Source: Chara braunii
Lineage: Eukaryota; Plantae; Charophyceae
NCBI GenBank assembly: GCA_003427395.1
Contig: BFEA01000034.1
Coordinates: 3,351,655-3,403,774, forward strand
Length of the DNA stretch: 52,120 bases
Reading direction: 5' to 3'
Within the stretch, counting starts at the first letter, position 1, and each line of letters starts with the position of its first letter. The notes under the pieces are model-generated. The model was given only the letters and a program-made list of their open reading frames with translations, had not been told where the DNA came from and ran no database searches. The position numbers were made by a program, and so were the translations under genes. Of this stretch, positions 4,279 through 42,979 are shown one piece after another.

Positions 4279-5014
4279 TGTTGGTGTGAGTACCCTTACA
4301 AGGGTATTCGCGCGTATTTTTGCACTTCACACCAGTTGCACATGTGATGGTACTTGAGGCATTCACTCGCATGAGTCGCATCAGTATTGTGATCGATTCC
4401 TTATTGTCGGAATGACGGGCGTATACGAGATTAGAGAAGAGAGTGTGTGCACGCGCAAGTTTAAAGGCGCGGGTGATTCGTTATCGTGTGCAGAGGGTCT
4501 GTTTTCGTGATTGTAGAGTTTTAAATTTTAGTTAAAAGATTGAGATTAAAATTTAATTTTAGTTTAATCGTATGTGCACGCAGGTCATGGGAAGAGCCTC
4601 GGCGTCTGCGCGGTCAGGGTGCCAGTTGTGACGGTCGGGAACCCAACCGGTAGGCCAAGACGTGGCCTTGGGGCACTTCGATGAGACTATGTAGTGTGCG
4701 AAACCTATTTAAATGGGTTTTCGTTAGTGCTAGTACCAACCTTGGGCGTAGCATTATAGGTTACGGTATCGGACTTTTATGCAATATATGCAGGGATAGG
4801 AGCTACTAATCGACGACAAAGGAGCGAAGAGGCATTATGAAGGAAACTAAGGGGTTGAGGGTCTGGCGGGACTATTCCTCTCAGTTTGTTGCCAACCAGA
4901 GCAGCAGAACCGGTAGGTGGGACCGAGGGGGTGTCGGCGGTCCCCTCTGTTCCCCAATCTCTACGTGCTTTTGTTTTTTATTTTATTTTTTACTTTATTA
5001 TTATTTAGTTATTT

Positions 5015-5373
5015 CATGTGTAGCATCGTGTTTGGGTTCAGTAACCGAGCCCAAACGGTCGCGACCGAACGCGAACGAGCGCCAAAACCCTCCGAACGTG
5101 AACATACAAATATTATTAAAAAAAAAAAAAAAACTTATCAGAAAAGTCTGGAAAAAATATATTTTATGTAAAATAATAATACAAACAACTTTTGCCTGGG
5201 AGGTATGCTCAAATTCGTAACCAAACTCTAGTTAAAAATCCCAAACCAAAAAAATATATATATATTTTTTCTTAATATATTCGGCCGAACACGTTCGGGA
5301 GGCGTTCGTCCAAACATCCCAACATGTTCGGACGTTCGGAAAAGCTCCAAACATGTTCGGTATGCTACACATG
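5015..5373. mobile_element. MITE-like insertion in LTR-A
   Basis: Terminal inverted repeat CATGTGTAGCAT...ATGCTACACATG; flanking duplication GTTATTTC/GTTATTTT (or 6-bp TTATTT); absent from LTR-B at ~38755; repeated CCGAAC/GTTCGG subterminal motifs. Confidence 0.85.
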
Positions 5374-5440
5374 TTATTTTTTGTTATATTTCGTTTCAGA
5401 AACTGGTTTCAATGTCGATATCGAGATTGGGTCTGATTTC

Positions 5441-5512
5441 GGGGGGCCTAGCTCAGTTCGTACACGTTTGGGCTGCTGAAATACGGACCCAAGTTCAAAT
5501 TCAGATGCTTCC
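5441..5512 (+). promoter_or_regulatory. Degenerate tRNA-like sequence (A box + B box) in LTR-A
   Basis: GGGGGCC-TAGCTCAGTTCGT ... GTTCAAATTC at tRNA spacing; the counterpart at 38818-38889 has TAGCTCAGTTGGT. Cloverleaf stems are broken. Confidence 0.45.
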
Positions 5513-6170
5513 AGATGAAGAGAATAGGATCGTCCTGAATTGTCTGGGGACCGGCCAGTCCGACGAGCGATATTTCAGGCCGGTGACCTGGTCCTTCGGG
5601 GTATTCGTCAAAATTGGAAAGATACAGAGAAGATAAGCATGGCCCCTGCGCAAGAATCGCGCACATAAATCGATCGAGAGTTATTTTTGTGGTTTTTGTA
5701 GATGCCAGGGACGTGAACGCAGTGGGACTGCATGGCGAGGAAGTTGACGTTAATGGAAAGAGACTGAAAGGTAGTGATGAGGCGGAAGAAGGAGACAGAA
5801 GAGAGGTGTAATCGTGCATTCCCTAACGGGTTTGGACGAGGTAGGGAGCGAAATTGAGGAGGCTGAAACAACAAGTGTACAGTGACATGCGGAGCGACGG
5901 TGATGAGTTGGAGAGGGAGAAAGAGAGCGGAAGCGTGCGAAGCAAAACGTGCGTAAACACGCAACGGAGAAAAACGGGAGACAAGGGAAGTTGGAGCACT
6001 CTTCGGGCGGTTGTATCTGATTATGGCCAAATAATGGTTCTCCCTGACCCCTCGATAGCAGCACACAACCTCGGGTGCATGTACCTGTTCGTGTTATACG
6101 CGAACACTCATTTTGCATTGTGCAACTATTTAGCGGGTGCAACGGGGAGTATCAACAGGCGAGATGGAGA

Positions 6171-6173
<3 letters not shown>

Positions 6174-6218
<45 letters not shown>
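6174..6218. repeat. (GA)n microsatellite
   Basis: AG run. Confidence 0.95.
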
Positions 6219-6221
<3 letters not shown>

Positions 6222-7099
6222 CTTAATCAATATGTAATGATGCAGGTGGACCGGAGATCGAGCCGCGGTGTTAAAACCCCACGCTAACTTGGGCGTGGAG
6301 GTTACCGACATATCTACCTAGTCAAGATCACAGAGTTCTTGTGTTCACGCTTGTTGTGTGCGTAGTTGTTAGTTAGAACTTGTTGTTATCGTTTTTTTTA
6401 GCGACATTTCGAATAGAGCACAGGGGCGTGCTCTATTTAGACACAGGCCTTTCTGGGCAGTATAGCTGCGTTCTGGTCAGTGGTTGGAACACGGTGGCTT
6501 AAGGGAGTGTTCGAACTCTTCCAGAAGGTCACCGTAGCAATTGGGGTTGTCAGAGGGCTGTTTTATTCTGCACCTTGGTTGTGATTTCACTATCTTCGCA
6601 GTGATTTGGTTGCCATTGCGGGGCTCTCAGGCATGTGAAGGTACAAAGGCTCTCTTATGCGAGTTGACCCCCTCTTGTATCTCGAGAGTATGAAAGTTTT
6701 TCTTTATCCTTTTTATTATGAGTCTAATCTGTTGTTCGGAGAGGAAGGCGGCAGGTGGGATCCCAACGCACGAGACCACAGTTAGACCTTGTGGAAGGGT
6801 GACCCACCGAGTGCGGGAACTCTGCTGGAACTTAGGGGGTTTGGAGGTAGGGAGTAGACATGTATACCTTCTCTGCCCTGTGTGAATTCTCTAAGCCCTT
6901 ATTAATATACATCTCTATGTTGACTGCTATGTATGTGTATGTCCCTATGAACTTTGATTCCTTCATAACCTAAGTCATATTAAGTGAAGAGAATGTGTGG
7001 TTGATTTCCACGTATTCTTATTGCATGAAACTCAGACAAAAATGAATTAACTGAGGTAAGATGGGAGAAAGGCAGTTTTGCTTGTTGATTGGGTCCTTG

Positions 7100-7970
7100 A
7101 GGGGCAGACAATGTGACTTCGGTTTGGCCTGACCACTTTGTTTATTTTGTTTTCTCTACAGCTAGACAATGTGGTTTCGGTCAGGTCTGATTGTTGTAGT
7201 ATTTGTTGGTTCCTCATCAATAACAGTCAGGCAATGTGGCTTTTGTTAGGTTTGGTTGTTGTATTGTCTTGTTTTCTTGATAATGATACAACGTGGTTTG
7301 AGTCAGGTTTGATTGTCGTACCTATGCAAGTTGTTATCCGTACAGCTAGGGGATGTGGCTTAAGTTTATCCTGACTATGATATGTTGTTGTCTTCCTTAC
7401 TTCAGACGGACAATGTGGTCTGATTCAAGTTTGGTTGTTTTTCTTATGATGATTAGTCTGATTGAAAAAGTTTAAGAGTTGGGTAATATGACTTCCGTCA
7501 TATCTAATTACTTATTTTTTATAAGGGAGATTTGGACTAATGACTAAGCAATAAGGCTTCGGTTTGACTTAGTCTACGGTCGCACACATAAAATAAGAGT
7601 TTGAAAATATGATTTCTATATAAATATATATTATAATTTTATTATTAAACAAAGTTAATCAAACAATGAGGCTTCGATTTGGTTTGACTATATCTTATCA
7701 GAAAAAGGAAGAAAATACTTACTTAAGAATATAATGAGTGTAACATAGAAAGACTGAGTAATGTGGCTTCGGGTTGGCTCATCTTTAGTTTTCATAAGAT
7801 TAAAAGTTCAGAAATATATTATAATTAGATATTGAACACTTGCCAAGGTTACACAATGTCGCTTCGGTTTCGTCTAGTTTACTGTCTAATGGAGAGAAAA
7901 GTAGTTATGCTCTTTATTTGTGTATATAAAGGCAAGAGTTAAGCAATGTGACTTCGGTCTGACTTAACCT
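7100..7970 (+). repeat. Array of ~13 hairpins with conserved 17-nt loop (LTR-A)
   Basis: AATGTGGCTTCGGTYWG-like motif every ~57-95 bp, flanked by unit-specific inverted repeats such as GACTAAG/CTTAGTC and GTTAAG/CTTAAC. Confidence 0.85.
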
Positions 7971-10900
7971 TTATTATGCCATATGTAAGCAAGGGTATTG
8001 GGGTTTATCCAACCAAAAGACAGTAAATTATTTATGTCAAGAATAACTTGGGTTTTTGGTGAGAGTATTTACCCATTGTGGTATGGATGTGCATGTGGTT
8101 GAATAGGGGCTCTGCTTGTTTTGAGTCTTAAGCTTTAATAGGTAGTTGCTTTAGATGTTTGCCACGTGCTGGAGCTATAGGAGTTAGTTCAATTTTTGCA
8201 TTTTTTGAGTTTATATAGGTAGTTTCTCGTACTTGACTTTATATAAATTTTTGGAAGACATTTTTGCTAATGGAAGTGTTGCTCAAACTTAAACAATCCA
8301 AATGCTTAGTAAAAATTTGGGAAGCCTACCTTTGTAGGCGAGGTTCTGCCCAAAGTTTTATTAAATCAGAAAGTTAGATAAAGTTCGACCGTGTGAAGCT
8401 AGAACTATTTTCAGACTTTGTATTTGACTTTGTACAAATTTTGGAAAGACACCTATCTAGAGGGAGTGTTGCCAAAATTTTTACAAATCTAAGAAATTAA
8501 TTAAATTGTTTTGATAAAATTCAAGTTTTATTTCGAGTTCGTATCTAGCGTAGTATGAATCTGAGAATCCTACTTCTCTAAAGGAGATGATGCAAATTTT
8601 TTTATTAAATCAGGGAGTTGGACAAAATTTGACTCTGAAAAGTCGAAGATGAGTTTGAATATTTTAAAACTTTGAAGGTTTGGCAGTCTGTCCTTGCTTA
8701 GGTAAAACAACGTTGAAAATTTTGATATTCTTAAACATATATGAGAGATAAGGTAGAAATGTAGGAGTATTTCATACTCACTCAAGCATAGCTTGGGCAT
8801 TGGTCTATGTTGAGTTGCACGTCATTTTTCATTTAGATTATTTTGTGATTTAATTAGCTTCAAGTTGATTTTACGAGGATCATCTTCTATTGTCATTTGA
8901 TAAGAGATCGGTTTTCAGCTCAACGGAAACTCATTCTTGCTACTCAATATAAGACCTTAACCATTGAGATTTTTTTTATTTTTTTTTTATAAATTAAATG
9001 GTCATTTAAAAAGAAACTGGGTGTGTATTTTTTGAAGATTCGACTAAGGTTGGAGCTTGTGTGAATAAGGTAAAAGGTGTGAGTGCAGAGAGTGGTTGAA
9101 ATTGACCCTGTGTAGAGTATGGTATGTTGATTGAATCTTTGGTGTGATTGCACGTATATTTTTATAAGTCGGAGTGTGAATTTCACTTCGCCTGCGATCA
9201 TGTGAATATTTTGAAGAAAGTCATACTATGATTATGAGAGTGATCGCCTCATGTTTTATGACGAAGTTATATTTATATTTTTGCGTATACGGAAAGTCTA
9301 CTTTGATCGTACATAAGGATCAAGTAGATTTGTGTCGAGAGAAAAGAGGGGTCCCTTTTTACTTTTGTTTTTCTTATATTTTTATAGTTGAATGTTGAGG
9401 ACCGTGGCAACTATCAAAGTCAAACCCCTTTACCTGTTTTCAGGCCTCCGAAGATGGAGCCTCACTTTCAGTATCAAAGGTGTTTGATCGCCACTAAGGG
9501 GCGAAGCCCGCCTACCCCTCCTCTTCGTAATGTGCAGAAGAGGGTAGGTCTCACAATCGTACTTGTAATTGTTTGGTGTCAAAAGACCAACCTTACAAGA
9601 CGAGTGTCAATCGACACTTGAGTGTCGAATGCGACCCTTAAAATTATTGAGGACCACTTGGTTGTGGGTACTAACATAGTACTTCATCAACTTGACCGTT
9701 TGCGTATACATGCATGGCTGGTCGATATGATAAAATTTATGTCGTCATAATATTTATTCAAGAGTCTTGCGCGCGACATCCATCTGATTATGTTGTTGAA
9801 AGGTACGAGTCAGATATGGAAAAGGGACGAGGCGCAATTTACGTATGAAGTGTGATTTTATTTTCGTGAGATGTATAGCGTTGTTAAATTTTATTATTCT
9901 AGTCGACCGGAGTAGGATCGCATTCGAGAAATGAGCGCCCCTGGCGATGATTCGCGCACGGGTCCGATTCTGACGTTAACCGTGCGTACCCCCTATGCTA
10001 CATCGAACGAGAAACGCCCATGGTCGGACCACTTATGCGATTGCATAAGAAAAACCTTCGCATGTGGTTCGGTAGCTCGACGGGGATACGCCCACTTAAG
10101 GGATGGTGACAAGTCCCACGGGTGGAAGAAAGTTATACCTTGCGTGACCCTATCCTATCGTAGGGGTTGGCAAGAGGTATGGTTGGTGCACTCGGTCGGA
10201 ATGGTGTCGAGCGTAGTGGTCGCGCAGGGGCACCCTCCTGATCACGTCATGCAGAATTATGTTCAATTTTTTTTTGCGGTGGAGTTTTTCGTCGTTTCGA
10301 CCGAGTGCGCCAACTACACCTCTCGCAAACTCTTACGACAGGATAGGGTCATACGAGATAGAACTTACCGCCGCACAAGGGTCTGTCACCACCCTTGGAC
10401 GGACGTATCCCCGCTAAGCTACCAAAGCAAGTGTGAAAGCTACTCAATTGCAATTGCAGAGGTGGTCCGATCGATGTCGTTTCTCATACACTGTAGCATA
10501 GGGGGTACGGGTGGTCGAACGCCTCTATCGAACTCGTACAGGAGTCGATACACTGGAGGGCTGATATCCGAAACACGACTCGACGCCGATCGACTATGAC
10601 GATCCACCTAACTACTCGTTACACAATGCCAAAATAAAGAATCAAGTTACTCACACAAAACATTCCTTCCCTTTTTGTGTCTTACCCATAATGTTTCTAA
10701 CGCAAGAATCGGTTAGGCATCGCACGCGAGTTTTAGAATACATACCGTGTGAACGCAGGTTTCCTCATATCGACTAGTCGTCCATGAATACGCAAGCAAT
10801 CACAGTGATGTGTATTGTGTAGTACCCACAATTACGTGGCCCTCAGTGGTGTCGAGGGTCGCTTTCAACATTCAAGTGTCAGCGGATAAAGGTCTTGAGG

Positions 10901-11980
10901 GATTAATCTTTCGACGCTAGACAACTGTTAAGCCGGTTGAGAGTCCTACCCTCTTCTGCATCCTGCGGGGGTGAGTGGTAGGTGAGCCTCGACCCTTTGT
11001 CGCTGTTGAACGCCCCTAACACTGGAAGTGGGGTTCGACAAGTGGACACCTGAAAATTGGTCAAGGGGTTTGACAACTGCCACAAACTTTAATGTCCAGT
11101 TATAAAAATTAACAAGCAAAATCAATCAGTAAATAAATAAACATTCGAACACACACATTAAATCAGAATTCTATATAAAGTAAAAAGGAGAAAAATAAGT
11201 CCATCAGATATGTAGATTGTGCGACACATGATTGTCATTCTCATTGCCTCCAAGGTAAGGCTCGTACATAAACTCCAAAACACTAACCTGCATAAAACAC
11301 AAGATTATATGAAAACCACATTGCCATACACCAGTGTGGTCAACTTTACTGTTCCATGTAACTCACACCACGACTCTCACACTTATGCCCCAACCATTGT
11401 CTAACCTTTCATAAAAACTCAACTATTTATAGTGATCATTAAAAGAAGTCTGGTTAAAATTCTCAAAGAAAAATATCGAGTCTCCAGGCTAAGGCATCAA
11501 GTTGAGGTACATGTGTAAGCAAAGTTGTGTCGTAAGCCGACGAATCGGCAACCAACCAATCGACCTGTTATCAAGAGATAAGAAAAGACGATCCTCGTAG
11601 GGTTGGGCTAAAACTCAATCGGATTTTCAATCGAAATGACCAAGACGGACCCATTAACACAGCATAGACTAAATCCCAATACTAAATATTAAGTGTATGG
11701 AGAATAAACCTCCATATTACATCTCATTCAAGTTCTCATAAAACTAACTTTCAACTTTATCTTTCATTCAGCACCAAAGAATAAGGCAGCATCTTACTTA
11801 TACAAGGTGGATCGTCAAAACTTTTTCTATCAGAATATAATATAATTCTTCAAAACTAAAAAAATTTGGCAGCGCTTTCCGTGGCAAAAATGCATTTTCA
11901 GAATTTATACAAGGCTAAATATAAAACTCTAAATAATTATGACTTCATGAAGTTAAATTTTGTCCAACTTCCTGATTTAG

Positions 11981-11984
<4 letters not shown>

Positions 11985-12021
<37 letters not shown>

Positions 12022-12398
12022 ATGTTGGAAAAAAAAAAAAAAAAAAAAAATTATGTTGTGTAAAATTGCAATACAAACAACTTTTGGTTGAGGGTCACAT
12101 CAGAATTCGTCACAGAACTAAAGATAAAAAAGAAAATAACCATATCACACTAAGGTACTCTTTCCACTCTAGAGGAGAGCCCTTTAAACCTCTTTAGCCC
12201 TTTTAAAATTCATTTACATTCCCCTTTCCCCCCTTGACAACCAATATTAAAAAAAAAAAAAAAAAAACGGATTTGAGTTCCTCTCGGAGAGCGCGGAAAA
12301 ACCCCACCGCTATTTTTTTTTATTTATTTTTTTTTGCCATGACCGGCTCAACCGGGCGTCACGCCCGGGTGACCGGCCGGTCATGAAAATCTTCCTAG
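11985..12398 (+). mobile_element. Small insertion in LTR-C, possible non-autonomous Helitron-like element
   Basis: Interrupts C/A homology. GC-rich hairpin CATGACCGGC...GCCGGTCATG (12338-12385) followed by AAAATCTTCCTAG. 5' boundary unclear. Confidence 0.4.
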
Positions 12399-12620
12399 CA
12401 GAAATAAAACTAAGTCCTATGAAAAATAAACTTAACTCAGAAAATGTAAGAATTTACCTAACTCCCATAGCTCCAGCACGTGGCGGACATCTAAAGCAAC
12501 TACCTATCAAAGTGGACCCTCAGACTAAGTAGTGCTCACACTCAATCACTTGCAAGTTCAAGATAGTTCATTAATCCTCACGTGATTATCATTTTTACAT
12601 ATCTTACATCTGACATGGCG

Positions 12621-13353
12621 CTAGACATTTAACTTAGAAACAATGTCTAGCATGCCTTAGATTATACACGAACATGTTGCACAACTACTCCTCTCTTCAA
12701 TGCGCATGTGACTAAGCCATTTGACTTACAAACCCTACTTAGTCGCCTTGAACTATTTAATATCCAAGTTTACTAATTCTCTAACTTGTCTTCAAAATAT
12801 GGGAATTGGACTGAGCTATTCAACTTAGAAACAATGCTCAGCTTGCCCAAGCTACTTTCAATTATACTCTTTATTTTTTTTCCTTCTTTTTAATAATATA
12901 CCTTAACGTTGAAGTATTCGACTTGGAAACAATGTCCAACTGTCTGTTCACATGCAATTATAAATAATATATTTGATGATATCTCTGATTATACTCGTTT
13001 ATATTTTGTGAGTGGTTTCAGGTTAAACCATTCAGGTTGGAAACGATGTTTATCCCTACGTAAAAAATCCTCCTTTGAAATGAAACAAAAAACTGAACCA
13101 TTCGACTTGGAAACAATATCCAACGTATCCTAAGTCACTCAAAGCATGAAGTTGAATCAACCCAACTTCAGTCAAAACCCCCCAAAGAAGTAGATAGATA
13201 AAGTCATTCAACTTAGAAACAATGCTTGATCTTGAAAATCAATCAAGCAAACCCACTAAAAATAAACGCAATAACCATACCGTTAAATTTATAAACAATG
13301 TGAAATAAACAATAAACATAGCACTGAATGATTCAACTTAGAAACAATGCTCA
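12621..13353 (-). repeat. Array of ~8 hairpins with a different conserved loop (LTR-C)
   Basis: Plus-strand motif CATTCRACTTRGAAACAAT recurs every ~70-125 bp, closed by CTAGAC/GTCTAG, GACTAAG/CTTAGTC, TGAGC/GCTCA, TAAAC/GTTTA. Syntenic with 7100-7970. Confidence 0.8.
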
Positions 13354-14837
13354 ACCTTGAATACTCGGTTCATCCCTTAGCCTGTTTTCAGTGAAAATGA
13401 AAAGAAACTGAATTTTATGCATGCGTTTTTTCTATTTAATTTGATTAAGTTCTAAAAACAATAACATAATTCATAGGGGAACACAAACATATATCTCGGT
13501 CAAACTAGAGATATGTAATCATAAGGGTATAGTGAGTTTACACAGCAAGAAGAAGGTATACCTAATAGTTATTTGCCTCCGTAACCTCGCCCATGTTTCG
13601 ACAGAGCTCCCGCAATCAGTGGGGCAAACCTCCCACAGAGGCTTTGACATGGATGGTTGCAATCCTGCCTGCCGCCTTCCTCTTCAAACCAAAAGACTAG
13701 ACTGATAGTAAGAAGGACAGAGAAAGAAGGATTAAGTCTCTCAGACCCAAAAACGATGCGCTCAGACTCAAGTGAGAAGGCCTTGAAACCTTGAAGCACC
13801 GGAGGACCCCGCAATGGTAGCCAAAAATCATAATAAAATGGTGAAACCGAAGTCGAGATATAGAGCAACTGCCAATGACAGTCCTCCCTATCGCAGCAGT
13901 AACCCCCCTTTACGACGCCTTGTCATTCCCTCAAGTCACACATCTTTTGCCTCTTACTAAACTGCAACAACGCAGCCTAAAAGGGTTGCGTTAGAATAAA
14001 GCACGCCCCCTATGTTCTATCCGAACTACATGTGAAGTGCAGTATTATGCGGCAATCAAAGCATTGCACAACAACAAGGCGCAGCGCAATGCACAGTGTG
14101 AGCACAACACATACACAATGAATGCACGATAAGTGCACAACAAGTGAGCAGCAAAAGCACTCTGTGAGCCAGCGTGCACAGCAAACGAGCATTGTCCGTG
14201 CAACAAATGCATGAATACAATGCAAACACACAACACTCATCGTATAGCGGCGATACACCACGCGACAGGGAACACCGAAGAAGGGTGGAACATGAGATGA
14301 GATGCCAAAATGTTGCAAGTCTGCCTTACAGATCGCAGGTAACCTTCCCTCCAGGAACCACCGCTATTGCCAAAAAGAGAGCGGCCTACACAACCCAACT
14401 TAGTCCGCAATATCCACTCCCCCGATTTGGCTGTGAACAACACCCGCTCACTCTACCCCCTGAGACTGTGAGATCAACACACTCTTCAAACAGTGTCGTG
14501 TAGTTACCGATCTGTCGGCGAGATGATAGACTTCCAGGTTGCAAGTCGCAATGAAAGCCAGATTTTCGACCGATGTTTGGAAAAATGCACGGACATGACA
14601 CTGATGGAGAGCCAAGGCAAAAACTCTGTTATCGGAGAGCGCTTATACTCGCTACCACGACAATACGAACACAACTCTCTCTCTCCTTTTCGATGCCCCT
14701 CCTTCACCGAATCTGGTCGCGACCGAGCCAGATGTGGGCAACTCAAGATAAGCTCGAACCAACCTTTTCCAATAAATAGATCGCCTCTTGAAGTTGGGAT
14801 ATGCTGCACATTTTAGCTCTAGAATTACCACAATTAT

Positions 14838-14901
14838 GTCCAGTTGCTCAGTGGTTAGAGCACCGGTTGGAAATGCGCATTGTGGTATGAGGTTGCGGGT
14901 T
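14838..14901 (+). promoter_or_regulatory. Degenerate tRNA-like sequence in LTR-C
   Basis: TTGCTCAGTGGTTAGAGCA (intact D-arm GCTC/GAGC) ... GAGGTTGCGGGTT; T-loop incomplete. Confidence 0.4.
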
Positions 14902-15119
14902 ATTACAGACATTGTCTGCGCACCACCCAAGGGGTAGTCCATGGTTGTTGTATGTGGGGATTGGGTGATGGTGGGTATCCTGATGTCCTTGGTCTACGGG
15001 GTTGTCATCAGACTGCTAGCCCAGCAGAGCACAGCTACAGAATATTTCACAGTGTAGGTCAATAGGATAAGTTACTTGCACAATTCACATAAGGTCCTGT
15101 GTTCCATACCAAACTGTAT

Positions 15120-15730
15120 CTTAGGGCTGGTCATCCTCTTAGTACGTGGTAAAAGGATTGAGGCTGGCATAGCAGTTCCTTAGTACGGGTTGTCAGGAGT
15201 GTCACGAGATAGTGCATTTTATTGCAGGGCCGGAACGGGCTCCAGGGACATACGAGGGAACAGAGGATTGCCTGCTCTCATATTTACCATACAACACAAG
15301 GCTAAGAGACTATCCAGGGTCAATACATACAGTACATGATTCACGATTGAGGGTGGGCTATCCACCTAGTACGTACCTTAGAGTTAAGGCTGGCATAGCA
15401 GTCCTTAGTACGGACGTCGGGGGTGTCAGGAGATATTGCACCTTACCGAGGGGTCGGAACGGGCTTCAGGGATATACGAGGGAACGGAGGATCCCCATCT
15501 CTCTACCATCAACATCATAGTACACTTAGTAAAAAGACAACATAAGGATAAAGAAAGAAACTCAGTCCATAACTCATGACCTACGGTTGGCTATCCTCCT
15601 AGTACGTAGCATAGGGTTGAGGCTGACATAGCAGTTCCTTAGTATGGGATGTCGAGGGTGTCATGGCCGAAACGGGCTCCAGGGACATACAAGGGAACAG
15701 AGGATACCCAGCTCTCTATCATCACCACAC
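15120..15730. repeat. Tandem repeat, ~230-bp unit x3
   Basis: TAGTACGT...GGCTGGCATAGCAGTTCCTTAGTACGG...GTGTCA...GGCTCCAGGGACATACGAGGGAAC recurs at ~15125, 15355, 15588. Confidence 0.85.
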
Positions 15731-17518
15731 AACTAAGCTAGATGGGAGTCACTGTGCGCCCTCCTGTAGTAGCATGTTCAAACCTAGCTCTCAAAGTCCC
15801 CGTGCAATCAGGCTTGCACGACGTCTGTTTCAACCAGGGCTGAGCAGGGGGTAGGCATCTCTGCTTAGCCCCGGTACCTGCAACCGCTGTCTGGTCAGGT
15901 CACCCCGCCAAGATGGCAATGGGTGATGGTCCTGGGTGGTTAACACTAGGGTAGGACAGGCGGGGTGGGGGTTCACCAGGGCAAAACGATAAGAGGAAGG
16001 GTGGGTGGGGTTTTCAGAGGGGTCCATCTGGACAACCGAGTGGGCGAGTACTGTGGATGACTGCCATCCGTCTAGTATCCCACCTCTACAACAAGCCAGG
16101 CTTTAAAAAAAAAAAAAAAAAAAAAAAAACCACAATTATCCGAGTGGTAAGAACACCACTACACAAATGATAACTAATTTAATGAGTCTTCTCAGTTCCA
16201 CAGTAAAGCATGTTCACACTTAGACGAGATTGGCTCTTCGAAACAAGGAGTGGTCACTGTTCGGGCCAGATGGTCGGTGGATATAATGAGTTGTCGCAAC
16301 AAGCGGTGATGGAAGGGCATGTAGCCATATCAGGCCGATCAGCCTACCAAGAGAACGTCAAACAACCATGGGGCGTGAGATGAAATATCCAGACGCCGAA
16401 AAGTTTTGCTACTTTGGATTTGCAGGTGAACTCTCTCTCTCTCTCTCGGGGTAAAAATAAACGATAGCAAAATGACAAAAATCTCGAGTGCAAGTTCACA
16501 TTGGAGGCCAGAAAGTGCAACGCTGCTAAAAAAAAAAGAGATAGAAAAACTCTGATACTCTTCCTGCTAGAGAACTGAAGTATTGAGTTTGTTGTCAATG
16601 AGAGCATGTTCTTGCCACCACCAACATACGTATCCAAAACTCTTCCTCTTACTTGGCACTTTGTGCCCAGACTACTACTACACAACTACTAGCAGCGTAC
16701 ACATTGGCAATGCACTCCCTTGACGTTCTCAGCAACAATCGAAATGCATGAAGATGTCGACCTCGTCGACCAGCATCAAGACCAGGTACCTGCCCTCACA
16801 CCATTATCCTCATCTCTCTTACTCTCTGATGGGCGGCCTCACACTAAGTCGCTCCTAGCAGATCGTGGTTGATGGGCGATGCTCCCACTGCGGTGCCGTC
16901 CTTGTGAAACCCCCCATCTGACAATGCCTTTCGCTTGGATTGGACAGGCCACAAGGGCCCGCATCTTGGATCGAGACGCCGGGGTTAAGCCCCGGCTCAA
17001 TAACATCAATAGTAGCGGGATTTCACCTGTGTTGTAAAGCTCCCACCAGTGAGGTCATAACGTAGGTTTGAATTTCAACAGGTGGTGGGCCTGTCAAACT
17101 GAGCTAGGCCAGCAAGTGCTAGTCCCACGGGCCTGATCACACCCAAAACTCTCATTGCATATTACGAGTTGGCGGACGGTACATACATAATCGGGCCCCA
17201 TCATTCAACTTTTTTTCCGCCCTGTGTGCTAAGCACCCAACAGGGTCACCAAAAAGAGTCGCGTGCTCAAGGTCCTCGACCACTGTGACGACTTTCCGTG
17301 GGCATTCAGACACCCCTCACTACCATGTCGGCGACAGCAATCGACGCCGACAGGGTTCTTACATCCAGATCAAAAGGGTAACGACCTTGAGATATCATCT
17401 TGCGTCGAACGACCATCATCGTGATACAGACTTGGATCTGTATTTCAAAAGTCCATCGATATAGCCATTGAGCTAGGCCCGATGCCAGTCTCGGAGCCGA
17501 TCACCGAACAATAGTTAG

Positions 17519-17588
<70 letters not shown>

Positions 17589-17841
17589 TAAAAAAATAAA
17601 AATGGTCAAGCAAAAAGATAGAGGGAAGAGGAGATCGCGTGTTCCGGCCTACGACGCCGTGCACACTTGGGCTTCAGTAGGCTGCCCTTCGTCCCCGTCA
17701 CACTGCACATACCGCTCACTCGGGCAAGGAGTGTGACTTTCTCTCGCACGAGCATTGTCAACTATGGACAAGGCCGCACCGACATGACTTACAAAAAAAA
17801 CACGCCAAATACACTTGTAAGGGTATCTGGTACGACAACGA

Positions 17842-17923
17842 GAACACTCTCCATGACAAATCCGGCAAAATCCTACGTTACGAGGCCGAGAGGGTCACCT
17901 TTGCGGGACCGATGCGCTCGACA
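17842..17923 (+). repeat. Distal end of 5' LTR-A
   Basis: Aligns with 44827-44908; ends CCGATGCGCTCGACA. Confidence 0.85.
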
Positions 17924-17925
17924 GG

Positions 17926-17945
17926 TTACGTCGTTGTCGGGGATC
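17926..17945 (+). promoter_or_regulatory. Decayed tRNA-Asp PBS
   Basis: TTACGTCGTTGTCGGGGATC, 14/18 match to TGGCGCCGTTGCCGGGGA, 2 nt after LTR end. Confidence 0.8.
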
Positions 17946-18413: not shown

Positions 18414-20520
18414 ATGGTGTCAATTAGAGTAAAAAGTAGTAAGAGAGTTAGCAAAGAGGTTTGTGTGAAGGGTTACTTTGGGTTGTATTTTCAGGGAAAA
18501 ACCAAGGCAATGAAGAAGGGGGACGCAGATGGAAGTCTGTCGCAAGGAGGGCTTGCGAATCGGGTCATATCGGTTGATGTGCTGGTGAGAGTTGAGAAAA
18601 CGGGCAAGGTAAGATCCCAGCTACCGAAAGTTGATATCTTCTACTTTAAGGGAGAAAGACTATCAGAATGGTTGTCTTTGCCACTGCCTTCGAAAATATG
18701 GTAAGGAAAGTGTCAGGTATGGCAGAAGAAGAGCAGTGTGTCATGTTCTTAGGGCACTTCTTGCAGACAGAGGTAGCAACCCTGACCGCAAAGGGGGCAG
18801 TTGGCCAAAAACTGACATGGACGACGATAAAGGATAGTGTGGCAGTCAGATAGTTAGACCAAGTTTACCTTTTCCAAATAAGACAATAAAGCGAGAGAGG
18901 CTACAGTCGGCGGAGGGTCGGACGTTAGAAAAATAATAGAGGAAATAGTGACCTGGTTGGCATCCATGCGAGAGGCTAGCACCCGAAAGAAAGTAATGGC
19001 TATGGCTCATATAAGAGGGAAGAGAAAAAAAAGTTGTAAGGGAGGCGCCGGAAGAAGAAGAAGATGAAGAGGAAGAAGAGTCTGAACCTCAAAGATTGAC
19101 GAAGGCCCAGCGAAGGGCTAAGAACTTAACGCAAGGGGGTCAAAACTCAGGAAGAGGGCAGTGTCTGCAGGCAATAGAGGTAGCACCGCCCGAATCAGGG
19201 GACCAAGTGGGTAAAGTTGGGCCATCACAAATTGGCCACCCGTCACACGGGTCGTGGCTGCAATATGAGCCGCCAGGGCATTGGCCTGGGTTTAACCCGT
19301 ATGCATCATGGTCGATCAAGTCGACCAATCTGGTGGTTGTGAATAAGGCCAAGGTTGGGGAAGAGGCAGAGGGAATGGAGGGCATGAAATGGAGGTCGTG
19401 GAGGAAATGGGAGTGGAAATGCGAGAGGAAATAATGGCGGAAATGGAGAAGATTGGAACACAGTGGGAGATAAAGGGGTTCAGGAAGGTGGTCAGGGATA
19501 CAGAAGAGGAAGGCAAGACTAGAGGAATGCCATTTGTAGGTGTTGTGCGCCAAAAGGGCACACCATGAAATTCTTCCATGTTAGGAAAATTGACGAAAGG
19601 ATGGTTTAATAAGTACGAACATCGATGAGGATGTCTATGATAAATTAGAGAACTATATTGATTCGAGTATTGCAGGATGAACAAGGCAGAAAACTTTGAG
19701 GCGTGAAAATTCGCCAAGTGCCCCGACGCCCCCCGCAATATTTCCATATTTGGCAAGAAAAAAAAATTGTCCTTGATGTGAGAGTGAAAAAACTCGAAGA
19801 AGGAGAAGTGGTGGATCAAAGACTAAGGCAGGTATTGCGCTGGAGGGGCCGATAATAATCGACTCAGATGGGAAAGATGATGGAAGTAATCACATACCTG
19901 TGATGAGGACTCTGGAAAGGATGGAGGATTTAGTGGGGAAAATAAGAAGGTATCAGGAGAAGATGAGGAGGATATGTTAGGAAGTGAGAGAGTGGAGGGC
20001 AAGGACTCCGATGATTTTCCTTTACGAGTCAGAACCAGAAAGGTTAGGGGAATAGGCAAGTGTCACTGGAGTCAATGTCTTGGGCCCAGGGCCGCGTTCA
20101 GGAATGACATTTAGACCCCCTTCTAGGCAAGGGAGAGTGCCTCAGGCGGTGTAAACGAGAAGTAGAGGTCGGGCGAGCTCTAGCCAACCAATGCCCGAAG
20201 AGACTGAACCCAACCATGAGAAAAAAAACTTTGGATGTCCTTGATGATGATGAGGAGGAGGAGGAAGATGATAGAATACGTGAGGAAGAGGATAGGTGTG
20301 CGGAGCATAGGGTAAAAGAAGAGGCATTAGGGTCAATGAGAATCCTACTCAACAAAGCCAGGTATTGAAAAAGAGGAAATATATGGTTAGAATGGAGGAA
20401 GACTTTGATGTAGAAATGATGGTGGAAAAGCTCATGGAAGATCATAACGAGCTCCTCAACTTGAAGAATATCCTCAGGTCGGCCCCAAAGTTGCGTAATG
20501 AGCTGAAAACATGTCTTTCT
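18414..20520 (+). pseudogene. gag: Gag remnant with frameshifts and stops
   Basis: Lies between PBS and protease. Fragments such as LPKVDIFYFKGERLSEWL; decayed zinc knuckle CRCCAPKGHTMKFF at ~19535-19576. Confidence 0.65.
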
Positions 20521-20526
20521 TGAAAA

Positions 20527-20958
20527 TTGGTAGCTAGCGTATGCCTGAGTACTTTGATTCCAAAGGAAGTTGAGTGGGCTAAGACCGGTACAAAAATGGA
20601 TTGGAAGTCCACCGTCATGGGCTCCGTGGAGGTAACAATCAAAGAGAGGCCTTGTATTATCATGATTGACACATGGACGAAAATAGAACTCATCAAGGAA
20701 AAGCATGTCATACGGTTAGGTCTGGAGATCGGTCGTGCGGACAGTGGGATACTTATGGGAGCCAACAACAAAGTGATTTTTATAGGCACTGCTTCAAATA
20801 TGGTCGTGGAAATCGAAATGGTAAAAGTAAGGAGTTGTTTCTTCATAATGTCGGATCTCGACCACCACATGATCCTTGTCCGATCCTTCCTCGGTAGAAC
20901 AAAGTCCCTCATAAGAAGCATAATGGAACCATGTTCCTCATACTTTGCGATTCCGTAG
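20527..20958 (+). pseudogene. pol: Retroelement aspartic protease remnant
   Basis: IMIDTW (decayed DTG catalytic motif) and MILVRSFL (decayed ILGRxFL) at the expected spacing. Confidence 0.8.
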
Positions 20959-21786
20959 GCGGCAACCATGAAGTGGTGGTTTGTAAGAATACGGGATCGC
21001 GTTGTGTGAAAAACAAACCTGATCCTGACTCATTCACTATTGAGGAGTCAGAAGAGGAAAGGAAAATGATAAAATGGAAATAGGTTGAGGTGGAGAAGCC
21101 GCCAAAGGCCTTATCCCTCAATCTCACCAATATGAGTGAGACGATGGAGATGGCGTCCACATTCGGAACGACAGACCTTGATGCAATAAAGACATTGAGA
21201 GAGAAGGTCATGAAAAGTTCAGTGGAAGACGAGGTGAAGTTCGTTTGTCGACTGTCTGGGCGAGTACAAGAGCAAGCCGCACCCCAGACCCAAACTGCAA
21301 GCCGACTTTGTTTAGGGGCGGGCTCAAGCAGGGCTCGCAAAGGCGGTACAAGAGAATAGGTTAGAAGTGTCACCCCATCCCCATTCTTGTAACTGAAGAA
21401 AAGGATACATACTATAAGCGGGAAAGGGAATTAATACGACAGATGAGGGAAAAAGTCAAAGAAAGACCATGTATTAGCGAAGAGAATGAATTGAGTTTGG
21501 TTATGGGAAAGTCGAGGTTCCTCAGCAAGGAGGAGGAAGTTTTAATGATAAAAGCTATAAAACACCAGCAGCCGTGAGGCCGCGGTTATAATCGCGGCGA
21601 CCACGGTCTGTCGCGGCCCGCAGCGGCCGAGGGAAAAGGGGGTTGGGGGTGTGGGTTTCAGACTGGGGTTCCGAAACCCCGACCCTAACCCCTCGAATAA
21701 AAAAAAATAAAAATAATAATTTTCGGGGGGGCCTTCTTGGTGTGTGAAAAAAAAAAAAAAAAAAATCTTGATTGTTTAATTGTTAT

Positions 21787-21814
21787 TTGATTGATTGATT
21801 GATTGGTTGGTTGG

Positions 21815-21845
<31 letters not shown>

Positions 21846-21857
21846 ATTGATTGATTA

Positions 21858-21891
<34 letters not shown>

Positions 21892-21919
21892 GGGGGAGGT
21901 CCTCCCTACCCTCCCCCTG

Positions 21920-21960
<41 letters not shown>
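21787..21960. repeat. (TTGA)n and (CA)n microsatellites
   Basis: TTGA/TTGG run 21787-21888; CA run 21921-21960. Confidence 0.95.
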
Positions 21961-22600
21961 NNNNNNNNNNNNNNNNNNNNNNNNNNNNNNNNNNNNNNNN
22001 NNNNNNNNNNNNNNNNNNNNNNNNNNNNNNNNNNNNNNNNNNNNNNNNNNNNNNNNNNNNNNNNNNNNNNNNNNNNNNNNNNNNNNNNNNNNNNNNNNNN
22101 NNNNNNNNNNNNNNNNNNNNNNNNNNNNNNNNNNNNNNNNNNNNNNNNNNNNNNNNNNNNNNNNNNNNNNNNNNNNNNNNNNNNNNNNNNNNNNNNNNNN
22201 NNNNNNNNNNNNNNNNNNNNNNNNNNNNNNNNNNNNNNNNNNNNNNNNNNNNNNNNNNNNNNNNNNNNNNNNNNNNNNNNNNNNNNNNNNNNNNNNNNNN
22301 NNNNNNNNNNNNNNNNNNNNNNNNNNNNNNNNNNNNNNNNNNNNNNNNNNNNNNNNNNNNNNNNNNNNNNNNNNNNNNNNNNNNNNNNNNNNNNNNNNNN
22401 NNNNNNNNNNNNNNNNNNNNNNNNNNNNNNNNNNNNNNNNNNNNNNNNNNNNNNNNNNNNNNNNNNNNNNNNNNNNNNNNNNNNNNNNNNNNNNNNNNNN
22501 NNNNNNNNNNNNNNNNNNNNNNNNNNNNNNNNNNNNNNNNNNNNNNNNNNNNNNNNNNNNNNNNNNNNNNNNNNNNNNNNNNNNNNNNNNNNNNNNNNNN
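21961..22600. other. Assembly gap (640 N)
   Basis: Run of N. Confidence 1.
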
Positions 22601-23016
22601 ATATATATTTATTTTTTTTTTTTTCGTTTTTTATTTTTTTTTCCTTCTAGTAAATGTCACAAAAGATTATTAAAAATCATAGGCGTGTAGAACTTTTTTT
22701 TATCTACACGTTTTGTTTTTTTTTCCGCCTATTTTTAGGCCCCCAAAAAATTCTCGGAGTTTCATGCCCGCACTCGGTTGCGGGCGGTCGACCGGAGTGG
22801 GCGGGATCCCGACCGCGGGCGGTAAAATGGCCCGCGGATGTGACCGCGGGTGATACATAGGATAAAGTTATAAAAGAAAGACATACTGCCTATGCGTTTA
22901 ATGACGGATGCCTCGATGTGGACAAGATTCTCAATATTAGGATTCATAATGTGCCGCATTAACCCTGGAATCTGTGAGGGGCAAGGTACAAAAATCCTGA
23001 GGACGAGAGAAGGGTA

Positions 23017-23790
23017 TTGAACTATCTAGATGGGAAAATTCGTTCTCACATCGCAAACTATTCCAGTGAGTCATATGCCTCGCCATGGTTTTGCTTCATC
23101 AAGTCAAACGGGACCCTGAGATGGGTACAAGACCTACAACGATTGAATGCGGTGACAGTGAGAGATGCATATGGTTTGCCTAATGCAGATGCAATTCCAT
23201 AGTCATGTGTGGGTAAAGCTATAATTTCACTTATAAACCTATATTCTGGATAGGACAAATTTCCCGTATATCCACCAAACTGGCCTATGATTATCATGCA
23301 TACATCTAGGGGGTTAGTTCACATGAATGTTGCCCCTCAAGGATGGACAAACGCAGTTGTCATGGTGCAGAGGCACATGGTACGAGTGATGCAGACAGTC
23401 AACCCTCACATTACTGAGCCATATATCGATGATTTGACTGTGAAGAAAAGGACGAGTCAGAGGCGATGCCTGGAGTAAGGAAATTTGTATGGGGCCACAT
23501 TCAGGATGTTTGTAAAGTCCTAGGCTTATTGGAAGAGCACAACCTCACCGCTAGTGAGCCAAAATCTAAGCACTGCATGCGAAAAACTACGATTTTTTTG
23601 TTTGTTTGGGACGAGAGGGGTCGTCGCCTGTACATTAGGAAGACAAACAAGATTCTTGAGTGACCAAATTCATTTGGAACGGTTACCGAAGTAAGAGGCT
23701 TCCTGGCTACGTGCGGGTTTTGAAGAGCCTTTATCAAGGAGTTTGCGGCAAAGACAAAACAACTACAGAAACTCGTCCGTCAGGATCAAG
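23017..23790 (+). pseudogene. pol: Ty3/Gypsy reverse transcriptase remnant
   Basis: YASPWFCFIKSNGTLRWVQDLQRLNAVT, APQGWTNA, PYIDDL (YxDD); several stops and frameshifts. Confidence 0.95.
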
Positions 23791-23819
23791 AGTGGAATTG
23801 GGGAGAAAAACAGGGGGCA

Positions 23820-24270
23820 ATGGTGAAAGAAATAAAGAGTGAGTTTGAGGATGGGGGCCTGGTATTGGGAGTTCTAGATTATACAGCCACCATGACTAGA
23901 CCAGTTATCGTAGAGACGGATGTTGGTCCTATTGCTCTGCGGGAAGTCCTTATTCAGAAAGATCGCAGGGCAGAGGAGAAACCATTAAGATTTGAGAGTC
24001 GCACTCTTAACACTACAGAAAAACATTTTTTGCAGTTTAAGTGTGAGACATTGGCAATCCTCCACTGCGTACACATCTTTAGGAATTATCTTTTCGGGAG
24101 AAGGTTTGTACTAAGGGTGGACAGGACTGCTTTTACTGGCTCTGTTAAGAATTACACACCTTTGGATCCGACCATTGTCAGATGACTTCCGTACATTTTG
24201 GATGTTTGATTTTCAATTGGAGCGTATACCAGAGAGCAAGAATAAAGCGAATGGACTAGATCGGATCAAT
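23820..24270 (+). pseudogene. pol: RNase H remnant
   Basis: VETDVG...LIQKD...PLRFESRTLN...ETLAILH...YLFGRRFVLRVD...KNKANGL. Confidence 0.92.
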
Positions 24271-27263
24271 CGGGATAGGAAGAAAGGTTATTCAAATGAG
24301 GGTTCGTCACCGGTGGACGACTTCTTGGATTGCGAAGAAGATATAGTGCTCTACATTAATGCATGGCCCGCGACCACAAAGCAGTTGGTAACTCCATGCC
24401 AACACTCATGGATCACCCCGTAGAGGTACAAATGAGGTGCAAATATTGTACTCAAACCATTTGCAGAAGAGGACCCCTTGCGTGAGCAAGGAGTTGACTG
24501 GATGATGAAGTGGACACCTACATATTACACGAGGAGCCATCTATGATTGAAGATAAACCACATCACGTGGAGGCGCATGAAAGATTGAAGGGAGTTTTAT
24601 ATATTTCAGTCAATGCTCTGGTGCAGGAAGAAGCATTGAGGATAGATGACCAAGGGTTCAGTAAAGAAGGGGAAGAGACTCTAGGAGAGGAGGATTCCGC
24701 AAGAGTGAATATGCAGGTATATATCTAGAGCTGAGACTACTCCTTCCATGCGAAATAAGGGAAAGGGAGGCAAGTCAGAAAACCCTCACGATGAAGTCGC
24801 GCTTTTTAGTAAGGGATAGTCATCTATTTATTCGAGGGAGAGCAAGTGAACCGAGGAGAGTGGTTTGTCCGCTGTCGGACCAAATACCCTTACAAGGGCA
24901 TTTAACCATGTTTTTACAATCAACACACCGATCGCACTGACCACCATGACGGGGTCGGTCTGAACTTAAAAGTGTACGTGTTTGTAGCGCGACACTTCGA
25001 AAACGATTTCCTCGACTATTGAGGCCGGGGAAAATTGGTGAGAAAATTTTGTCAAGTACGCGCGCACGTTATTGAGACGCGCGCTCTGATGGTTATGGTC
25101 AATACTAATATCCTTCGGCCAAAGAGGTCGAGGGGTCGATTGGGTTAGTGATGTGTTAGATAGACTTACGACACACAATGAGACTTAATCGTCAGTACGT
25201 TATTTGGGATAAATTAATATACACCCCGGTCATACGGCCATACGGCCGAAGCAAACTAAAAGTGTGTGATCATCGGGTCTACAATAGCGCCCAAATTGCT
25301 AAGCACTTACTTGAGCAGTACCTCTGTCCTACTCATATACAACAAATGAGGTTTTGAGTCTACCGCTCGGTCTCCCATGTGAAGGGAGGTGTCTGTCTCT
25401 TAGACGATGACTTCCTGACCTCGAGGCACCCAAACAACCGGTGGCTTCGTCCCTTTCGGAAGGAAACATCATTGCGGACCCTGATATCGCGTATACATGC
25501 CCTAAACTCAGACTACTTGAACTGGTACCCACCTATCTACCGGTACTGGGCCTCTAAAAATGCCAACTTTTGTCTTCTTCTACTCGACCTCGGATACCCG
25601 GCACATCTACCTTTACTTGGTGTGGTACCGACCTACCTGCTACTTGAGTGTTTTATCTTCCTCTCAAGTGTCGCGGACCTCCTGCCCCGCCACCCGAGTG
25701 TTTTCCCAGTTGCAACCCTCAATGTCATTGCTACATGTAAGTACCAGCCCTCGACCTTCCGAGCAATCAAGTGCCCTTGTAGGGAACACACTCATCCAAG
25801 TCGACAAGCACTCAGGCAGGCACGCAGACTAGCAAGCGCACACACACACAGACTTAGAATTGGGCTCGGGTCACTAGGCGAACCGAGCCTCATTCCTTTA
25901 CTTATATCGGGACTGCTTCTGTCTTGCTCGAAGCAGGAGCTAGCCTGATAGGTTTCGGTATAAATTGACAAGTAACAAACTCGAGGATCGAGTCCACCTG
26001 CCTGCGGGTCAACTCCTTTTGACAAGGAGCCCCATATGATTTCGCCCCTGTTCTCGGCAAACGGGGCTCGAACCCGCGACCTCGGTATTAGAATTAGTTA
26101 TGTAGGAGAGGTACGACACTTGGCACGAGCAGATAGTTAGTAGTTAGATTCTGTTCTTTTATTTTATTTTCGTTAGTTATTGCTAGATTTTTTATTTTTT
26201 ATTTTTTTTATTATTATTATCGTTTTGGTTTGTCTTTCTTTTTCTTTCTCTCGATCTCGTACTTCACGAGACTCGTCTGCATAAATGAATCCGTAGCGGA
26301 ACCGCGGGAAGGTTCATTCCCCTCGGGGTTGTTGATACGGGGCCTTAGGCTTGGCTCACTCGATACTAGCCTGCACACTCGGGAGAGAGGCGAGCTGTAG
26401 CAGGTGAGCCAGCGGACGACGCGACCCCGACATCAAGAAGAGCAGCGGAGGGGTCGTGAAGTGGTAGCAAGGAGGAGTCGCGCGAGGAGTAAAGAAGATG
26501 GTCGCGCGAAGGAAAGGAGATGGCTGCACAGAAAAAGGAAGCGCAGCGGGAAGCAGGAGGAGCAGTTAAGGGAAAAGCAAGAAGTAGGAGTTGTGCGGGG
26601 GAAATAGTGGAAATGACCGAGCAAAAAGATGTGGAACATGGAACGCGTGGAGAACAACGGAGATGGCGCATGGGGAGTAGCGAAGATGGCCGTGGGGTAG
26701 AAGGAGGGCGAGGGGAGGTAGCGCAAGCGGGCAAAAAGAAGAAATGTATGCATGAAGAGAGGAGGAGATGATTGTGTGGTGGTAGCAGAAGGTGAATGTG
26801 CGGAGGAAAAGAGGATGGTCGCGCAGAAGAAGGCGGAGCGAAGAAAGGCAGTGAGAAAAGTAGCGGGAGGAGGGAGTAGAAGAAGTAGTAGTAGTAGTAA
26901 TAGAAGAAGAAGAAGATGATGAAGAAGAAGAAGAAGAGGAGGAGGAAGAGGAGGAGATAAGGGGAGAGGGCGACTTACCTGGCAGTAGGTGCACCCTCCC
27001 TTGTAGTCGATAATGGCGCCAGGAGGTTGGGCCCGTCATCGTCGACTTGTTAGAATGCGCGTTGTACCGTCACTGCCCGACCTGCACGAGTGCACACTTG
27101 TGCCTTCCGTTTGGCCCGTGACCTGATCACGATATGCTGCACTTCATGTCGGACATCGTTGCTTTGTGGGACGACGACAATGACGACGACGATGAGGAGG
27201 GAGATAAGACAGGTAAGTCTCCTACCCTGCGATTGGCGTCTCGCTATTTTCATCAATAGGATA

Positions 27264-27267
27264 TGTG

Positions 27268-27313
<46 letters not shown>

Positions 27314-27366
27314 AGTGTGTGTGTGTGTGTGCGTGTGTGTATGTGTGTGTGTGTGTGTGTGTGTGA

Positions 27367-27403
<37 letters not shown>

Positions 27404-27406
27404 GAG

Positions 27407-27474
<68 letters not shown>

Positions 27475-28678: not shown

Positions 28679-28702
28679 GCGTGTGTGTGTGTCTGTGTGC
28701 AT

Positions 28703-28703
<1 letters not shown>

Positions 28704-28738
<35 letters not shown>

Positions 28739-28759
28739 TTAAAAAACAGGCATACAAAA

Positions 28760-28798
<39 letters not shown>

Positions 28799-29295: not shown

Positions 29296-29296
<1 letters not shown>

Positions 29297-42933: not shown

Positions 42934-42979
<46 letters not shown>

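Follow-up and report, generated by a model that had tools for sequence, protein, structure and literature searches.

Hairpin arrays with differing loop types in related long terminal repeats of Ty3/gypsy-like retrotransposons from Chara braunii

Several described systems bear some likeness to the hairpin arrays dealt with here. In Arabidopsis, the VANC proteins bind a 9-bp duplex DNA motif that has spread through tandem repeat formation, and the VANDAL elements carry such motifs densely and in the same orientation in their non-coding DNA, the motifs differing between related families and changing together, as outlined in the available part of the source (PMC5735166). The palindrome region in the long terminal repeats (LTRs) of Sireviruses, which belong to the Ty1/copia elements, holds several hairpin-capable units per LTR, varying among families and loci; these are GC-rich palindromes of 17 nt, the arms of which are conserved and the centre variable (PMC4728375, available part). 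At the level of RNA, the Rev-type systems, including Cer1 CERV, illustrate that an extra protein of an LTR element, made from a spliced message, can gather on genomic RNA and act on it for export, Rev multimerising on structured RNA; the available part of that source does not mention a repeated array of hairpins (PMC10309623). In lambdoid phages, the N protein—an element-encoded basic peptide—reads the single short boxB RNA hairpins in bacterial antitermination (PMC8632103, available part). Finally, some plant LTR elements are known to have an additional 3' ORF in sense orientation; in the Athila-like Ty3/gypsy elements it comes after gag-pol, is probably spliced and is described as env-like in the available part of PMC7264820.

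The window—i.e. the whole analysed stretch of 52,120 nucleotides from Chara braunii (contig BFEA01000034.1), to which all coordinates refer—contains nested LTR retrotransposons, self-comparison revealing three related long repeats, A, B and C, each with an array of hairpins. The earlier note had likened these arrays loosely to the VANC motif arrays, but on the basis of structure. The structural part of this analogy is supported by the covariation of the stems, whereas the mechanism is not, since the VANC motifs are tandem (PMC5735166, available part) and the spacers here are non-repetitive and orthologous across subfamilies, with no sign in the three arrays of a tandem multiplication of the target motif. 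Unlike the VANC targets, the motif thus lies in covarying hairpins between unique orthologous spacers of an LTR retrotransposon, and its partner is putative. In contrast to the Sirevirus palindromes, the arms are variable, the core of 17–19 nt is conserved and the domain order is that of gypsy elements. The Rev-type systems differ in that splicing is here a prediction and the 3' ORF has a capsid-like fold, and N/boxB, with its single hairpins instead of arrays, serves as an analogy only. From the Athila-like elements the locus is distinguished by LTRs that measure ~6 kb and include both a hairpin array and a U6-like insert, as well as by a 3' ORF that starts capsid-like. Family-specific repeat arrays in LTRs are already known, and what is new here is the combination of free stems, a fixed module and its concerted swap without tandem growth.

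The LTRs A, B and C and the element around them

LTR A, likely the 5' LTR, consists of a main part on the forward strand at 4676..10204, the start of which is uncertain, and of a tail at 17838..17923 (+) that ends with CTCGACA and carries on the sequence of B beyond the insertion of C. LTR B (38410..44908, +), likely the 3' LTR, has a decayed end (...GATA) and is directly preceded by a purine-rich tract at 38400-38409; it is 76-85% identical to A in aligned blocks. Since A halts at 10204 and resumes at 17838, and B follows the purine tract, A and B, judged by their sequences, probably belong together as the pair of LTRs of a single old element, and C is a solo LTR-like copy. The latter (10205..17837, minus strand) possesses TGTCG...TCGACA ends, lies in reverse orientation inside the 3' part of LTR A, near its end, lacks its own coding region within the window and likely contains later insertions at ~14700-17100. 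An exact target-site duplication was found neither around C (AATGG on the left, ACGAG on the right) nor around A/B. Additional LTR pieces with the conserved 3' block of A, B, C or a neighbouring piece were seen at 9958-10200, 32161-32404, 45399-45196, 2172-2362 and 50420-50170; C and another LTR piece both end beside the 3' end of a related LTR, a hint of an insertion preference.

The tail of LTR A is followed by a decayed primer-binding-site-like stretch (17924..17943, +), a clearer copy of which, TGGCGCCATTGCCGGGGA, is present at 2366-2383 behind another LTR end; we take this stretch to resemble the tRNA-Asp primer site of Athila. ARAGORN found no tRNA gene. The broken gag, protease, reverse transcriptase (RT), RNase H and integrase regions extend over 18522..33729 (+), being split by insertions and an assembly gap. 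The succession protease-RT-RNase H-integrase on one strand is the Ty3/gypsy order, and tblastn with Chara proteins gave strong matches; the Pfam matches for protease, RT and integrase are below the curated cut-offs. All 21 relatives found for the RNase H are Chara braunii proteins, the best sharing 65-67% identity. The element shows two direct LTRs with TG...CA ends, a primer site and a purine tract, although its ends are decayed. Between pol and the 3' LTR it has an additional ORF in sense orientation, which is a feature of the Athila lineage.

Three smaller insertions or expansions may be mentioned: a MITE-like insertion in A at 5016-5372, missing from B and having the inverted ends TGTGTAGCAT...ATGCTACACA; three diverged copies of a ~220-nt unit inside C at 15122-15733, probably derived from a nested element; and a 26-nt tandem expansion within the integrase coding region at 32700-32866 (+).

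Units, spacers and flanks of the three arrays

According to the earlier note, LTR C should hold, in the interval syntenic to the A/B arrays, about eight hairpins with a loop of another type. This was confirmed, array C consisting of eight hairpin units and a ninth, decayed one, as against 12 in the corresponding interval of A and B. In a scan of the window, the C motif ATTGTTTCYAAGTYGAATG occurs on the minus strand only and only within 12644-13348, exactly in two units, with ≤2 mismatches in six and with ≤3 in seven. A motif-free test delivered seven as the largest group of similar 18-mers in the C interval, compared with a maximum of two in 60 dinucleotide shuffles. The array of LTR A (7102..7969, +) comprises 12 units with the core AATGTGRCTTCGGTYWG, and that of LTR B (41335..42205, +) 12 positions, the third unit being decayed; the 17 matches of the A/B motif with ≤2 mismatches are all situated in A (7110-7945) and B (41343-42181). 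A generic hairpin scan of the window detected the three arrays and, beyond these, just two tandem repeats.

As to the positional homology of array C, on which the earlier note depended, both flanks do align with those of the A/B arrays—in the case of B, 13825-13400 to 40812-41235 at 67% and 12557-12418 to 42322-42462 at 77%—and the last six units correspond one to one. All the C units are on the minus strand. The first, C1 (13322..13356), is the likely orthologue of A/B unit 1, its flanks resembling those of B1 by eye. It is followed by the decayed unit (13281..13299), likely unit 2, with four mismatches to the C motif and a poor stem, and by C2 (13197..13231), which has no clear orthologue in A/B. 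C3 (13091..13125) corresponds to unit 7, with a spacer of 35 versus 32 nt and an alignment z of only 0.7 (A) and 2.0 (B), C4 (13021..13055) to unit 8 and C5 (12907..12941) to unit 9. C6 (12809..12843) equals unit 10 and has the stem TGAGC/GCTCA, the same as in A10/B10. C7 (12710..12744), the counterpart of unit 11, exhibits the stem GACTAAG/CTTAGTC with eight pairs and a core at 12736, its loop being decayed here (four mismatches); at 12722 and 12729 most related contigs carry the letters of the motif. Finally, C8 (12620..12651), i.e. unit 12, combines the stem GCTAGAC/GTCTAGC with an 18-nt core and exhibits three double-sided changes in comparison with A12/B12.

The trimmed spacers of the last five C units measure 35, 79, 63, 64 and 57 nt, those of A/B 32, 82-83, 62, 62 and 57 nt. 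The diagonal z-scores (A/B) of the last four are 3.7/1.8, 3.9/3.2, 3.0/3.0 and 6.0/7.3, the first of the five having 0.7/2.0; it should be noted that a few off-diagonal cells of the C-versus-A/B spacer matrix also reach ~3. Spacers inside a single array are mostly unrelated (highest z 3.0). Based on the sequences, C3-C8 are one-to-one orthologues of units 7-12, and so the arrays are older than the change of the loops.

These data also bear on a separate origin of the arrays, i.e. a tandem duplication of one hairpin in each subfamily, with uniform loops as a by-product and no homology unit by unit. Such an origin could explain the differing unit numbers (9 vs 12) and the poor alignment of the 5' halves of the C and A/B arrays, in the middle of which there is no alignment at all. 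A true tandem hairpin repeat does exist in a related LTR-like piece inserted in pol (30941-31177, +), where a 69-nt unit that forms a long hairpin interrupted by an internal loop is present in three tandem copies; this represents a tandem-type array in a sister family. The matching spacer lengths, the diagonal z-scores and the mostly unrelated spacers within an array nevertheless largely refute this origin, which is considered very improbable, and tandem re-expansion is ruled out for the 3' units because their spacers are orthologous and mostly unrelated within an array.

Downstream of the arrays, all three LTRs share a highly conserved block with a CACGTG box (8120-8200, 42360-42430 and 12520-12450), a possible promoter element, the block having very high summed depth in the DNA runs; a further element, GTGTATA, is found in each of them ahead of the last unit. 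A conserved LTR block upstream of the array was considered as a small gene for a partner protein and was rejected, since its differences lack codon-position bias. For an intron around the array, the donor- and acceptor-like letters are not conserved across the three LTRs, and no spliced reads were seen.

Stems and loops

The units were located by their loops and the stems scored over the first seven positions. Watson-Crick or G.T pairs make up 87% of the 217 stem pairs, shifted registers yielding 19-45%. When arms were swapped among units, the Watson-Crick pairs decreased from 54 of 84 with the unit's own arm to 41.7 in A (p=0.003), from 59 of 77 to 42.0 in B (0 of 20000 permutations) and from 41 of 56 to 30.0 in C (p=0.001). 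Among the 23 A/B units—arrays A and B being not independent of each other—cells with both sides changed number 41 versus 17.6 in shuffles that ignore relatedness (0 of 500); the seven C units alone, in shuffles of the same kind, give a weaker signal, reached by 3 of 500 shuffles for pairing and 27 of 500 for two-sided changes. Over the 49 positions compared between orthologous stems of C and A, 16 are the same, 11 have a one-sided and 11 a two-sided change with the pair kept, and 11 are broken (38 pair in both); the corresponding numbers for C and B are 19, 14, 7 and 9 (40 pair in both). Taken together, the pairing and covariation of the units make a single-strand structure well supported.

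It appears likely that this structure is formed in RNA rather than in DNA. In 26 of the 31 units the sense RNA has a lower folding energy than the antisense (with DNA parameters, in 19 of 31), but sense folding is also favoured by the G/T-rich composition of the strand. Similarly, G.T exceeds A.C in the stems by 35:12, with p=0.001 against 1:1 and p=0.16 against the 2:1 expected from the G/T-rich strand. The opposite possibility would be a DNA-level regulatory region of U3, an enhancer or anti-silencing pad, its core being recognised as DNA by a protein, and its arms giving rise to cruciforms or single-strand DNA hairpins. Dense motifs of the same orientation are indeed a feature of the VANC targets (PMC5735166, available part), repeat variation between subfamilies has been described for cis-regions of LTRs (PMC4728375, available part), and the downstream CACGTG box together with GTGTATA suggests a promoter context. 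However, a reader of duplex DNA has no need of arms that vary and yet remain complementary, the Sirevirus palindromes with their conserved arms and variable centre are the opposite of the present units (PMC4728375, available part), and DNA parameters give weak folds (mean -3.1 kcal/mol) that are also less strand-biased, so that a DNA pad has to be regarded as improbable.

The loops fall into two types. The core has 17 nt in A/B (AATG-T-GRC-TTCG-GTY-W-G) and 19 nt in C (ATTG-T-TTC-YAAGTY-GAA-T-G; 18 in C8), the letters A1, T3, G4, T5, C8 and the closing G being common to both. The 30 scored units, which exclude C8, B3 and the decayed C unit, have 0-6 mismatches to their own consensus and 7-10 to the other, none of them being nearer to the latter. 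Within the three arrays seen whole, two of which, A and B, perhaps belong to the ends of one element, no mixing of loop types was found among these 30 units; the claim that all loops of an array have changed in concert therefore stands, each array having one type. Loop identity within the arrays is 0.80 (C), 0.68 (A) and 0.78 (B), as opposed to 0.43 between orthologous and 0.44 between non-orthologous units of C and A/B, and in each family the loops are more uniform than the stems.

Both types probably are homologous and structured, with a 3-bp inner stem and a tip of UUCG in one and YAAGUY in the other. In A/B, the three inner pairs around the UUCG tip hold in 21, 22 and 18 of the 23 units, and the substitutions at the two variable positions of the core always preserve a G.U, G-C or A-U pair; in C, the inner pairs U-A, U-A and C-G hold in 7, 7 and 6 of 7 units. 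It should be pointed out that this register was chosen by the analyst and not by a folding program, RNAalifold leaving the A/B core unpaired and picking another register for C. No array was matched in Rfam at the gathering score, the one weak match being on C (E 0.68).

The wider family was followed in two DNA runs, in which the C interval has 3687 and 3812, and a stretch of B of 451 bases 307 and 280, related contigs at 80% likeness. In tables of contig letters, covered for the best 40 rows of each, the majority letter at several sites that depart from the motif or break a stem in the window is the motif letter or restores the pair, e.g. at 12817 (96 contigs), 13330 (84-87), 42007-42008 (31-33) and 42197 (47-51). 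Both loop types are thus features of families more uniform than the decayed copies of the window. Read ends at unit 12 point to a loop starting with ATGTTYCATAA (X1 and X6, agreement 0.68 and 0.82), and those at unit 11 a 7-bp stem with a 4-nt loop (X1, X4 and X6, 10-17 records each, agreement 0.76-0.82); these short consensus fragments suggest further loop types at the same positions in other copies. As for RNA reads, 41 and 706 were assigned to C, none at 99% identity, on both strands and broadly following the DNA depth, and 18 and 0 to B. Viral contigs gave 0 and 0 matches in a motif scan. In metagenome contigs, scanned with the C motif, there were 16 single matches, which were taken as chance because none was accompanied by a second unit or by LTR similarity beyond the motif. 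In the literature, as covered by titles and the openings of abstracts, no description of such hairpin arrays or of U6 in an LTR was encountered.

With tandem re-expansion set aside, the routes left for the concerted change are a transfer of the inner module from one unit to another, parallel changes driven by selection, or a combination of the two. The replacement of a motif in concert across 8-12 dispersed, non-tandem units with orthologous spacers is unusual and calls either for short-patch conversion while the retroelement replicates or for a partner that exerts strong selection. The former leads to an alternative in which the hairpins act through RNA structure or through loosely specific binding of a host protein, e.g. 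in stability, export or shielding from silencing, their loops being homogenised by template switching—a molecular drive—with no co-evolving partner encoded by the element. The earlier note had pointed to three stems recurring in both subfamilies. One of them, TGAGC/GCTCA, does recur at an orthologous unit (C6 and unit 10), but the other two do not, CTAGAC being found in C8 (unit 12) and in unit 2 of A/B, and GACTAAG in C7 (unit 11) and in A8/B8. Such near-identical stems at non-orthologous units, with 12 of 14 arm letters shared in each case, are what whole-cassette copying predicts. The 2-nt insertion in every C unit would also arise more easily through copying than through parallel mutation; letters of the internal loop are common to both types, and the flank ATATGCCCAAA occurs next to a C-type loop, another loop end and the 4-nt loop. 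Some copying is therefore favoured by the common length difference and by the stems at non-orthologous units. On the other hand, copying of cassettes would homogenise the stems too, and these vary by unit, each fitting its own arm; the arm alphabet is narrow (5-10 of 14 letters common between non-orthologous arms), so that two matches in 96 comparisons may represent convergence; and the loops stay more uniform than the stems in each family. The diverse stems, each with its own complement, and the more uniform loops favour selection on structure and module, and drive in the absence of a co-evolving partner seems rather unlikely.

The candidate partner, and U6-like sequences in the LTRs

A candidate partner of the hairpins is the product of the broken 3' ORF (33990..35653, +), located behind the integrase and a predicted splice acceptor. 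It comprises a variable N-terminal tail, two capsid-like four-helix lobes, an acidic middle and a C-terminal region that resembles a coiled coil when inspected by eye. The window's own decayed piece returned no match in the homologue search, with only weak matches in the Atlas, and the N-domain of a Chara relative retrieved 55 proteins, all from Chara braunii. The closest relative of the window's 3' ORF, P0063, shares 50-57% identity with it over most of the length; in other relatives, the N-domain has 27-35%, compared with mostly 61-75% for RT and RNase H proper and 34-50% for decayed or adjoining stretches. It is common for accessory ORFs to diverge more quickly than RT. Most relatives possess an arginine-rich tail, but those of P0063 and of the window's ORF differ and are not notably so.

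The N-domain of P0063 was predicted as two four-helix lobes with a mean pLDDT of 75.7. In VIA-align, capsids and proteins derived from them account for 34 of the 35 highest rows, the best Z of 8.3 (rmsd 2.8, 74 aligned) being modest for helical domains; Foldseek ranked the Arc capsid first, with no match at E 0.001, and a sequence search of the PDB found only a weak match to dArc2 (E 0.63). The predicted domain is accordingly capsid-like and does not correspond to a known RNA-binding fold, and its assignment as a fast-diverging, capsid-fold partner of the hairpins is that of a candidate only. Since a top structural match is a Gag-derived restriction factor, a role of the 3' ORF in copy-number control is also possible.

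In the reading preferred here, to which slightly less than an even chance is given, the hairpins would act as a series of docking sites for a protein of the element itself—either Gag or the 3' ORF product—that differs between subfamilies. The arrays of 8-12 positionally orthologous hairpins would likely fold in the sense RNA of the element, each unit having an outer stem of 7-8 bp, an internal loop 5'-A(A/U)UGU / (U/A)G-3', a 3-bp inner stem (G.Y, R.U and C-G in A/B; U-A, U-A and C-G in C) and its tip. The outer stem would do nothing but present the module and hence be free to drift through compensatory change. A new module would pass from unit to unit through the array by short-patch copying during reverse transcription and be retained by selection for the matching partner, by which means the element would export or package its own RNA among a crowd of related elements. 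The read ends with a mere 4-nt loop at unit 11, which suggest a subfamily of that type, speak against this reading.

A more far-reaching version of the docking reading, itself doubtful, sees in the array an RNA address code of self versus relative: its inner module would be replaced simultaneously throughout the array, a spliced second-capsid protein would recognise it and co-evolve with it, and each subfamily would export or package only its own genome. Phage-specific loop preference is known from lambdoid N/boxB. If true, the address code would be an RNA-structure counterpart of the VANC specificity, evolving without tandem expansion, and cognate loop-protein pairs would represent natural orthogonal RNA tags. 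A family with many copies and apparently several loop types bears on the co-evolution of protein-RNA codes and on how related retrotransposons avoid serving each other.

Apart from the arrays, LTRs A and B carry at the same place a full-length U6 snRNA-like sequence (Rfam RF00026), at 5586..5688 (+; 65.1 bits) and 38967..39064 (+; 66.6 bits), respectively. It lies ~100-150 nt behind a tRNA-like head with A-box and B-box and has a T run at its end, which suggests, as far as the sequence can tell, that the LTR bears a polymerase III unit, a situation recalling the 5S in Cassandra. In LTR C no U6 match is present behind the homologous tRNA-like head (17480-17430, minus strand), a second similar head being visible by eye at ~17110-17060, and the cargo of the tRNA-headed unit may thus differ by subfamily, too.
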